A DNA stretch of 64,000 nt from Escherichia phage vB_EcoM_Lutter, in sequence record NC_054924.1; one strand, 5' to 3'. A program made the translations under genes and the position numbers. This document shows positions 33,249-34,998 of this stretch, piece after piece (within the stretch, counting starts at the first letter, position 1; each line of letters starts with the position of its first letter). The notes beneath the pieces were generated by a model. That model was not told the origin of the DNA, ran no database searches, and worked only from the letters and a program-made list of their open reading frames with translations.

Positions 33249-33581
33249 TTATTTTACTACTTTCCAATGCTGCATGTCAAGTTTACCAACTTTTTTCATC
33301 TTCTCAATTAAGCGTTCGGCACGTTGGCGAGCTGTAACATAATACCATTCACCTAATTCATTTTGTTCAATTTTTCCAACGATTACTGTATTCAATTCAT
33401 AAATCCAACCAGTAAAGAAATTATGAACTTGAATTGTAAAGGTGAAATCTGTTCCCATACCTTCTGTTGTTTCTACTTCAATGATATCACCTTCAACTGC
33501 CATTAAGAACCACATAGTTTCATCATATTTACCATTGAAGCATTTAGTTTTAACTGTAGCGTTCAGATTAATCGTTTTCAT
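33249..33581 (-). CDS. Hypothetical protein
   Basis: 110 aa ORF, AAAGGAGAA SD. Confidence 0.6.
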   Translation of the reverse strand: MKTINLNATVKTKCFNGKYDETMWFLMAVEGDIIEVETTEGMGTDFTFTIQVHNFFTGWIYELNTVIVGKIEQNELGEWYYVTARQRAERLIEKMKKVGKLDMQHWKVVK

Positions 33582-33608
33582 TTTATTCTCCTTTGTTTGT
33601 GTAAGATA

Positions 33609-33638
33609 ATACTATCACAAAGGAACCATACTGTAAAC
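33609..33638 (-). promoter_or_regulatory. T4-type early promoter
   Basis: Minus strand GTTTAC, 18 nt spacer, TAGTAT; upstream of ORF 33249..33581. Confidence 0.55.
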
Positions 33639-33654
33639 AACTTTATGCAATCTT

Positions 33655-33687
33655 TGGAAAATAAAAAAGGACTCCCGAAGGAGTCCT
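33655..33687 (-). terminator. Rho-independent terminator
   Basis: AGGACTCC-cgaa-GGAGTCCT hairpin followed by TTTTTTAT on the minus strand. Confidence 0.7.
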
Positions 33688-33691
33688 CAAC

Positions 33692-33910
33692 TTATGCTTT
33701 CTGCTTACCAAAACGAGAAGCATCATCTCGAAGAACCGCACGTGCTCGGCGCATGATCTTCTCAACAGTTTGATTGATACGAGAGTTCGACCCACGCTTG
33801 TAGCCAGCGCGTTTAGAATCACCAACTTTCTTTTCAACTGCTTTCTTTGCTTTAGCTTGTTTTGCCATTATAAATTCTCTTTTAAATGAAAATGCAGGAC
33901 TTATTGGCAT
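33692..33910 (-). CDS. Small highly basic protein (30.9-like position); start may be ATG 33910 or ATG 33868
   Basis: 72 aa ORF (58 aa from internal ATG); K/R-rich MAKQAKAKKAVEKKVGDSKRAGYKRG... Confidence 0.5.
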   Translation of the reverse strand: MPISPAFSFKREFIMAKQAKAKKAVEKKVGDSKRAGYKRGSNSRINQTVEKIMRRARAVLRDDASRFGKQKA

Positions 33911-34266
33911 TGCCTGCGCAAGCCCTCAAGGGGAACATAGGTTTTTGGATATTTAACGACCAGGATAACCATAAACCCGTCATCATACCTTATAGCTCTT
34001 ATCTGTTGCACACCGTTAGCTTAAAGGTTCCGGGTTCGATTTCTCGAGGATAAGATATATACTGATGGATATATAGGCCTTGAGGCGTACTCCCGATTGG
34101 CCATCACCTCGGGGTAGCATGCACTTGCCGCTATAAGAATAACATTCAAGAGGTACACCGTAAAACTGCCGGGGTCTTAAAACTATAATGATTCGCAAAT
34201 CATTAATCAGACAGTTCGACGGCTCCTCGATTTTAGCTCACACTAAGGCAGTGAATCTCCAGTAAA
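33911..34266. other. GC-rich noncoding island between rIII and the 30.x ORFs, function unassigned
   Basis: About 355 bp without a convincing ORF; locally GC-rich against an AT-rich genome; multiple inverted repeats. Confidence 0.3.
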
Positions 34267-34515
34267 TTACTTCAGTGTTACCACAAAGTGACGAACTGCT
34301 TTTCGTGCAGCAGAAGCCAAAGGCTTAGCATATTTAAGTTCATCTTTTTCCTGAAGCTCAGCAGCTAATGCAGTTTGAGCAGGATTCAGATGTTTGAAAT
34401 AACGCAGGATTTCAAGAGCTTCGGCTTCAACATCAATAGATGCGCCATAGTTTTCGTGACCATTATTCCATGCGTTTCGTTGCAGTTCAAGAGCGTGTTG
34501 TAATTGTTTAATCAT
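34267..34515 (-). CDS. rIII: rIII lysis-inhibition accessory protein
   Basis: 82 aa; sequence MIKQLQHALELQRNAWNNGHENYG... recognised as T4 RIII. Confidence 0.85.
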   Translation of the reverse strand: MIKQLQHALELQRNAWNNGHENYGASIDVEAEALEILRYFKHLNPAQTALAAELQEKDELKYAKPLASAARKAVRHFVVTLK

Positions 34516-34662
34516 TTAAAAATTCTCGTTAGAGATTAAAACTCGGTAGTCACGTTCTTCTGAATTTCATCTTCTTTCGACAGATCTCTCAGTTGTAGAC
34601 TACCACATAGAATTGTTCGGTTAACTTATTATTCCGACACCCAATTCATATTATTATTTATA

Positions 34663-34998
34663 TCACTTATAAAGACACGGAATAGCTTTATAGTGACAGG
34701 TAACAAATTTTTGTTTAATTTCTTTTGGCTGCTTAAGACCCAGAGCTACAAAAGGATGCGGAACATTTCGAATTTGACCAACTGGGAGAGAAGTCAAATC
34801 ACCAACTTCGCAGAAACCTTCAGGAACATCAGGACCGACAGAGTGAATTACACACAGTTCAGGAACTTCACCTTGAACACGTTTACCGATAATAAGTCCT
34901 GATTCTGTAACTTCTTCATCACCGGCTTGTGCAGGTTCAGAAACTAAAATAACATATTCACCGACAGCACGAATTGGTAGCTGTTGTACTTCAGACAT
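34663..34998 (-). CDS. 31: gp31 co-chaperonin (GroES analogue) for capsid folding
   Basis: 111 aa; sequence recognised as T4 gp31. Confidence 0.95.

Follow-up and report, generated by a model that had tools for sequence, protein, structure and literature searches.

A candidate new family of structured RNA between rIII and 30.9 in T4-like phages

Introduction

Few viruses have been studied as much as the T4-like phages, which are also in wide use for phage therapy. In a stretch of 64,000 nucleotides of Escherichia phage vB_EcoM_Lutter (NC_054924.1), hereafter the window, an earlier note made from the sequence without database searches had singled out a GC-rich, structured, non-coding island between rIII and the 30.x genes. 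It offered several readings, namely a stable small RNA, a degenerate tRNA or intron remnant, an origin or packaging-related element, and acquired DNA. Here we ask what this gap contains, where else its content occurs, and what it might do.

Results

Setting of the gap between rIII and 30.9

The local genes all lie on the minus strand and follow the T4 order: cd, 31.2, 31.1, gp31, rIII, the gap, 30.9 and 30.8. The features that frame the gap are the following.

34663-34998, minus strand: gp31 (Cpn10)
34267-34515, minus strand: rIII, 82 aa, the upstream gene (tblastn, 100% identity to annotated rIII genes; T4 synteny)
33692-33868, minus strand: 30.9, 58 aa, very basic, the downstream gene (phrog_1427, E-value 2e-31; T4 annotation)
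33688-33667, minus strand: terminator after 30.9, GAGGACUCC-UUCG-GGAGUCCUU plus U-tract, the first terminator (scan)
33637-33609, minus strand: early promoter, TTTACA N17 TAGTAT, directly after the terminator (scan)
33249-33581, minus strand: 30.8 (PF06019)

The 30.9 protein matches no Pfam family. A mechanical call opens its reading frame at ATG 33910 and yields 72 aa, the version of the old T4 entry X54536; both NC_000866 and the conservation between genera put the start at ATG 33868 (58 aa, MAKQAKAKK...). Because conservation of 30.9 starts at this ATG, the gap begins at 33869. The non-coding stretch thus covers 398 nt (33869-34266), slightly more than the approximately 355 bp first claimed, and, as claimed, it has no conserved reading frame. 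Its enrichment in G+C is likewise real but modest, with 44.4% for 33911-34266 vs 36.3% for the window, which corresponds to the 97.5th percentile of equal-sized windows. Escherichia phages slur03, slur08, slur14 and VEc20 share the stretch 33600-34600 with the window at 100% identity.

Promoter and terminator scans found no promoter-like or terminator-like site inside 33869-34266. Since no such site separates rIII from 30.9, the element described below should be co-transcribed with both genes and, judging from the sequence, should lie on the rIII-30.9 message in the same sense as its neighbours. Outside the gap, the terminator and the early promoter (33688-33609, minus strand) make up a PeSL-like cassette after 30.9.

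Predicted fold of element E

The minus strand of the gap holds a structured RNA of about 149 nt, which we call E. The inverted repeats that had been noticed in the gap turned out to be the stems of this conserved and covarying fold, whose parts are listed here.

33989-34137, minus strand: E, closed by stem P1 (covariation, covariance model)
34137-34130 and 33996-33989, minus strand: P1, 5' strand CUUAUAGC and 3' strand GCUAUAAG
34076-34129, minus strand: arm 2, with a short stem, an internal loop and a long bulged hairpin
34129-34127 with 34078-76, minus strand: arm 2 stem GGC:GCC
AAGUGCAU / CUCAAG, minus strand: conserved internal loop of arm 2
34118-34085, minus strand: long bulged hairpin of arm 2, hexaloop UGAUGG at 34106-34101
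34056-34075, minus strand: arm 3, an A/U-rich 7-bp hairpin, hexaloop CCAUCA at 34068-34063
33997-34055, minus strand: arm 4, in which a 7-bp stem opens into a three-way junction with two hairpins
34055-34049 with 34003-33997, minus strand: arm 4 stem UCUUAUC:GAUAAGA
34047-34036, minus strand: GAAA-capped hairpin of arm 4
34035-34010, minus strand: 5-bp hairpin of arm 4, ACCCG...CGGUGU, with a 15-nt conserved loop GAACCUUUAAGCUAA
34009-34004, minus strand: joining strand of arm 4, GCAACA

In the predicted fold, E is a perfect four-way junction with zero linker nucleotides, closed by P1. The strands of P1 are the immediate flanks of E and form 5-9 bp; their sequence differs by lineage (AGC/GCU, AAC/GUU, UAC/GUA, CAC/GUG, AUC/GAU and UAG/CUA), and the pairing is kept in all. 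Similar replacements occur within the arms. The arm 2 stem GGC:GCC becomes GGU:ACC in fHe-Yen9-01, and nine of the ten pairs of the long arm 2 helix are changed on both sides. For the three helices of arm 4, the corresponding counts are 5/7, 4/4 and 3/5 pairs, and ACCCG:CGG is replaced by ACCCA:UGG in Yen9 and by ACCUG:CAG in the GAP161 group. In 20 of the 28 copies, the arm 4 hairpin that is GAAA-capped in the window has a GNRA loop (GAAA or GUAA) when read on the sense strand.

The hexaloops of arms 2 and 3 are predicted to form a 6-bp kissing helix. Within a single molecule, this contact would need the long arm to be folded back along arms 2 and 3, which the helix lengths in our model would permit (approximately 13 bp vs 3+7 bp), although the kissing loops could pair between molecules instead. 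RNAalifold also proposed a register with a GAUG tetraloop on the long arm. The hexaloop was preferred because the GAP161 group has GGA-UGCAUU-UCC at this position and because the hexaloop kisses arm 3. A pairing of the invariant GCAU with GCAAC was considered and rejected, as it lacks covariation and meets one counter-example (Cronus).

Covariation, strand and conservation

Single-sequence folding of E was unremarkable (z = -1.9). Covariation backs eight helices. In an alignment of 28 copies from both loci at which E occurs (see below), 98.5% of cells were paired, and both partners had changed in 32 of 42 pairs; these counts are inflated because this alignment was fitted to the model. None of 500 shuffles reached 32 pairs, and slid controls gave at most 7. 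An independent MAFFT alignment evaluated with RNAalifold gave the same picture with fewer changes, that is, 42 pairs of which 19 had compensatory changes and 98.8% of cells paired. Here, too, 0 of 500 shuffles reached the observed level, and slid versions stayed at four pairs or fewer.

In 21 of 21 sequences the kissing helix was paired at 100%; three of its six pairs have changes in both partners, and one-sided changes are absent. A run of six or more contiguous Watson-Crick pairs is kept in each of the 13 distinct loop combinations, which between them use six duplex sequences (UGAUGG/CCAUCA, CGAUGG/CCAUCG, CUAUGG/CCAUAG, CAAUGA/UCAUUG, UGCAUU/AAUGCA and UUGUAUU/AAUACAA). When loops were mixed across these types, the longest duplex was 5 bp and never 6.

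The paired cells also carry information on the strand. They comprise 58 G-U vs 3 A-C cells (19 vs 0 after removal of disputed pairs), and 5% of pairs are lost on the opposite strand. The excess of G-U over A-C identifies the minus strand of the window as the sense strand of E; the genes upstream of E lie on its sense strand at both loci. The same asymmetry, together with the sense orientation at two unrelated loci, points to a transcript and thus speaks against the suggested origin or packaging element.

Conservation in E is concentrated outside its helices: 24 of 46 unpaired columns (52%) are invariant among the 28 copies, vs 14 of 81 paired columns (17%). Invariant in 28/28 copies are AAG and GCAU in the internal loop of arm 2, GA.CC and GCUAA in the arm 4 loop, and GCAAC at the junction. 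Such invariant unpaired bases are, as far as sequence comparison can tell, the signature of tertiary, ligand or protein contacts. Taken together, covariation, strand asymmetry and conservation strongly support the first option of the earlier note, a structured and possibly stable RNA, and show that selection on the fold is strong.

E is not coding and matches no known RNA family

A coding frame hidden by a frameshift had been named as a possible refutation. No reading frame stays open over the core of E in all lineages, and several lineages have stops in all frames. Variable columns are spread over the codon positions as 32/30/34 and thus show no three-base periodicity, and indels have lengths that are not multiples of three in every lineage. 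The 60-codon open reading frame that crosses E in the window (34016-34198) has no PHROG match. In GenBank, many records place "hypothetical protein" reading frames across E, and in JC221 the annotated frame is antisense; these frames are probably spurious.

Rfam searches (Rfam 15), which the earlier note had proposed as a check, gave no match inside E at an E-value ≤10, either on 1.2 kb or on 176 nt, and the latter result speaks against an intron remnant. Four loci with divergent copies of E gave no match at an E-value ≤1. The sub-threshold hits, Atu_C8 (31 bits vs a cutoff of 50) and Phe_leader, both fall at 33653-33736; they are matches on the terminator of 30.9, merely reflect a hairpin with a U-tract, and were discarded. 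ARAGORN found no tRNA or tmRNA gene in the whole window. The near-tRNA T-loop motif of the earlier note, GGGTTCGATTT, is indeed present on the plus strand (34032-34042), but it is the antisense of the 3' arm of the GAAA-capped hairpin and of the 5' arm of the next helix. Its likeness to a T-loop is coincidental because these positions covary (UCGA, UCGG, UCAG, UCUG and UGG). A T-loop (GTTCRANNC) closed by its own 5-bp stem was not found, the bases of GGGTTCGATTT being split over two helices and variable in sequence. The absence of ARAGORN calls and the antisense relation to a covarying stem leave little room for a degenerate tRNA.

Several motifs considered by eye were rejected because their bases are unconserved or their geometry is wrong: the 11-nt GAAA-tetraloop receptor, a k-turn, a C/D-box, a hammerhead core and the SD-like GAGGUGAU. 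Antisense pairing of E to a tRNA T arm, also considered by eye, failed as well. A transposon or MITE was dismissed, as E is single-copy per genome and the P1 termini vary while the interior is conserved. Literature searches on rIII/30.9, on non-coding RNA of T4-like phages and on the E sequence itself, with one 2026 preprint not covered, returned no description. By these searches, E belongs to an RNA family without an earlier description.

Distribution of E among phages

The covariance model matched the window at 34132-33994 with 170 bits, and this is the only copy of E in the window. E was found in about 406-415 phage records, with one copy each; the count of 406 comes from BLAST with the central 146 nt of E. 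By host, these 406 records are dominated by Klebsiella (161) and Escherichia (129), and the remaining BLAST matches, fewer for each host, belong to phages of Shigella, Enterobacter, Yersinia, Salmonella, Citrobacter, Serratia, Erwinia, Edwardsiella and Kosakonia. A homologue of rIII was present in 1115 records.

E lies between rIII and 30.9 in Tequatrovirus and Mosigvirus and in phages of Klebsiella, Enterobacter, Edwardsiella, Serratia and Erwinia; phages with E at this locus include Roth20, PEi26, Muldoon, COW86c, Cronus, EcS1 and fHe-Yen9-01. No copy was found near rIII in Proteus phiP4-3, Yersinia phiR1-RT, Serratia X20 and one Acinetobacter phage, nor in several relatives within Tequatrovirus and Mosigvirus. 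The window copy is 93.5% identical to the Klebsiella phage copy and 92.1% identical to the Edwardsiella phage copy, whereas gp31 and rIII reach only 67-75% nucleotide identity in the same comparisons. Besides selection, recent exchange between phages could be behind part of the 92-96% cross-genus identity.

Outside phages, E had no match among 5,426 E. coli genomes, plasmids gave only two chance matches of 30 nt, and a scan of GTDB genome contigs gave one chance match. Pattern scans of metagenomes and IMG/VR returned T4-like contigs only, plus chance matches that the model rejected. This absence from E. coli, plasmids and GTDB, and the synteny of E in many Straboviridae, argue against recently acquired foreign DNA.

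Sharp-edged alleles in T4 and T2

The earlier note was aware of no equivalent gap at this junction in T4. There is one, however: T4 has a gap of 244 nt between rIII and 30.9 (NC_000866, 130541-130784), and it lacks only E. Compared with the T4 leader, the window is approximately 100% identical except for a sharp block of 153 nt, which is E.

Three alleles thus occupy one sharp site, with nothing in T4, 44 nt in T2 and 153 nt in the window; the site lies at 34138-34141 / 33986-33988 in the window, between ...CUCUUGAAUGU and GUAUGAUGACGG. The 44-nt insert of T2, UUACUAUCAUGCGUCAGAAAAGUGUUAUCUGUGUAAGUCUUGGUG, looks unrelated and is possibly a decayed remnant of E. No target-site duplication was seen at the T4/window junction. 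In T4 and T2, 30.9 and the remaining leader persist in the absence of E. E is an autonomous module, as it sits at two unrelated loci (see below), is cleanly lost in T4 and T2 and changes its order with the small hairpins around it from lineage to lineage; it is dispensable, and its alleles have sharp edges. The simplest history would be an ancestral E that was lost in T4 and left a stub in T2, since E is syntenic in many genera of Straboviridae, the flanks are approximately 100% identical and the edges are sharp.

A second locus after uvsY

A search with covariance model R1, built from 21 distinct copies of E, also picked up Yersinia phage JC221, whose copy is divergent and scores 84 bits. BLAST with this copy led to Cronobacter phage GAP161 (Pseudotevenvirus), Enterobacter phage phiEap-3 and Klebsiella phage K41P2 (both Slopekvirus), and about 20 others. 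In JC221, GAP161, phiEap-3 and K41P2, E stands after uvsY/uvsY.-2 in the sense orientation. It lies there in a convergent gap before uvsW.1 and uvsW, with a strong hairpin terminator approximately 150 nt downstream and no gene 3' of it on its own strand. Because the copies at this locus have no same-strand gene downstream, E is not tied to 30.9; they also imply at least one relocation of E.

In JC221, approximately 700 nt from uvsY.-2 to the terminator before uvsW.1 contain no convincing gene. This stretch, which is unusually long for a T4-like genome, holds E and several other hairpins.

Hairpin modules next to E

Four smaller hairpins surround E in the gap of the window.

34235-34260, minus strand: module G, hairpin GGAGAUU-CACUGC-CUUA-GUGUG, directly after the rIII stop codon (matched by eye)
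33947-33986, minus strand: module H, AUGAUG-stem-GUUUAUGGUUAUCC-stem-GUUAAAUA, just 3' of E, retained in T4
33920-33936, minus strand: module C, GUUCCCC-UUGA-GGGCUU, a small G+C hairpin
33894-33917, minus strand: stem GCAGG...CCUGC, immediately before the ribosome-binding site of 30.9

Module H recurs across genera. It precedes E in phages of Klebsiella, Edwardsiella and Serratia and follows it in Tequatrovirus, Cronus and EcS1. The AUGAUG at its start is conserved in most genera, and covariation at two of its five pairs gives weak structural support. Module H was rejected as an early promoter owing to an unfit spacing of 13-15 nt. Directly 3' of E, UAUGAUGA (33976-33988, minus strand) resembles a C-box (AUGAUGA); it gave weak and meaningless Rfam snoRNA matches (E-values 5-10).

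At the rIII/30.9 and uvsY loci alike, the pattern of module C, GUWCCC(C)-loop-GGGG(C)UU, follows E at a distance of 50-70 nt; the module has no U-tract and was not called by the terminator scan. The GCAGG...CCUGC stem is replaced at the same place by GGGAG...CUCCC in Roth20 and PEi26, as read from alignments. Sequences related to module G (GGUGA..YGCUAC-loop-GUGCR) occur upstream of E in Roth20, PEi26 and Yen9 and downstream of it in JC221. Modules G, H and C accompany E in shuffled order at both loci.

Discussion

The reading that we favour, with a probability of about 70%, is that E, as the representative of a new family, is an autonomous structured RNA whose function depends on its fold. 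Eight covarying helices, a kissing contact and an invariant core amount to a complexity like that of riboswitches and ribozymes, which implies a specific molecular partner. E would then be a stand-alone RNA domain whose three-dimensional shape lets it bind a conserved partner, a host or phage protein or possibly a small ligand. Such a domain may work in trans once processed, or in place within a 3' UTR or between cistrons. Its function would be accessory rather than essential, for example as a decoy or in counter-defence or host takeover, and 30.9 would not be its specific target. The patchy presence of E among close relatives and its relocation resemble, by analogy, accessory functions of host takeover and counter-defence.

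A more ambitious and tentative version, which we consider possible but would not bet on, makes E the first member of a new functional class of RNA, either a trans-acting decoy or sponge against a host factor or defence, or a ribozyme or ligand sensor. If this is true, the absence of E from the laboratory phages T4 and T2 would explain why such a class went unseen.

Among the alternatives, a cis-regulatory leader deserves the first hearing. E would be a riboswitch-like or protein-binding aptamer that controls translation of 30.9 or transcript elongation, perhaps in a variant where the very basic 30.9 protein regulates itself. Most carriers have E upstream of 30.9, in a long leader full of conserved hairpins, and aptamers typically have what E has, a four-way junction with a loop-loop contact and nucleotides that are invariant at the junction. 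Of the hallmarks of a riboswitch, E has the covariation-supported, conserved aptamer fold. It lacks a conserved expression platform beside it in a 5' leader, as what follows P1 on the 3' side varies (module H, module C or neither). Furthermore, the copies of Slopekvirus, Pseudotevenvirus and JC221 follow uvsY.-2 with no same-strand gene downstream, and T4 and T2 retain 30.9 and the remaining leader without E. We therefore regard a cis-regulatory leader as unlikely, although at the rIII locus, where E does stand in front of 30.9, some role in cis is conceivable.

Small ribozymes are common in phages, and E might by analogy represent a new self-cleaving class that processes the polycistronic message, with a cut between rIII and 30.9 or, at the other locus, within the 3' tail of the uvsY message. 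Its size of approximately 150 nt, the compact fold closed by a stem, the loop-loop contact and the invariant unpaired nucleotides would all suit a ribozyme, and its intercistronic or 3'-UTR position resembles that of small ribozymes. No sequence feature marks a cleavage site, however, and hammerhead, twister, twister-sister, pistol, hatchet, HDV-like and hairpin ribozymes gave no match at an E-value ≤10, which makes this a distinctly unlikely reading.

Still harder to uphold is a passive stability element, a fold that would block 3'-5' exonucleases or RNase E and so shield the rIII or uvsY message. E does lie downstream of a gene cluster at both loci and in a 3' UTR at the uvsY locus, but the terminator hairpin of that locus stands approximately 150 nt beyond it, and a roadblock needs neither half of its unpaired bases invariant nor a covarying 6-bp kiss; we consider this improbable.

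Lastly, a DNA-level element, a degenerate tRNA, an intron remnant or a small protein gene that a frameshift conceals, as suggested by the inverted repeats, the plus-strand GGGTTCGATTT and the hypothetical proteins that some GenBank records place over E, is scarcely credible given the wobble asymmetry, the lack of any tRNA and of any group I/II intron or other Rfam match, and the stops, aperiodic variation, missing PHROG match and indel lengths described above.

Whatever its role, E is unannotated or mis-annotated as small hypothetical proteins in more than 400 deposited genomes. In practice, annotators should drop the reading frames across it, and the family could enter Rfam. The window phage, T2 and T4 differ by the presence or absence of E and thus provide natural, isogenic-like pairs for work on its function. 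One possible outcome is that E could represent an RNA-based layer of host takeover or counter-defence.

Comparison with known systems

The aptamers of the SAM-I, cobalamin and lysine riboswitches (the last with an L2-L3 kiss) are multi-helix junctions with loop-loop or loop-junction contacts. E is like them in its stem-closed junction, bent arm, Watson-Crick loop contact and invariant junction bases, and differs in having neither an Rfam match nor a conserved platform and, at one of its loci, no downstream gene.

The pRNA of phi29 is an RNA of approximately 120-170 nt with a multi-helix junction and two complementary, covarying loops. E resembles it as a phage RNA of comparable size with a junction and covarying complementary loops. 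The pRNA loops pair between molecules to form a ring on the portal, and packaging of the T4 type is not known to need such a ring. E has no Rfam similarity to pRNA, and its kiss is 6 bp long and may form within or between molecules.

Closer to home, PeSL cassettes, which combine a terminator stem-loop with an early promoter of the form TTTACW N17 TAYWAT (PMC4122927), are short non-coding modules at the edges of indel polymorphisms in T4-like genomes (PMC2839356, PMC4122927). E is likewise a short non-coding module at insertion/deletion edges, but the scan of 33869-34266 found neither a terminator nor an early promoter in it.

The T4 RNAs rnaC and rnaD (T4 70908-71171) differ from E in belonging to the T4 tRNA cluster, and the end of rnaC is a true tRNA-like T arm, whereas E lies elsewhere and is absent from T4; a search of the T4 tRNA region with R1 and filters off found no homology between them. 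In kind they are similar: according to the annotation, rnaC and rnaD are dispensable structured RNAs without an assigned function, approximately 120-140 nt long, from T-even phages, and are transcribed within a polycistronic unit on the early strand.
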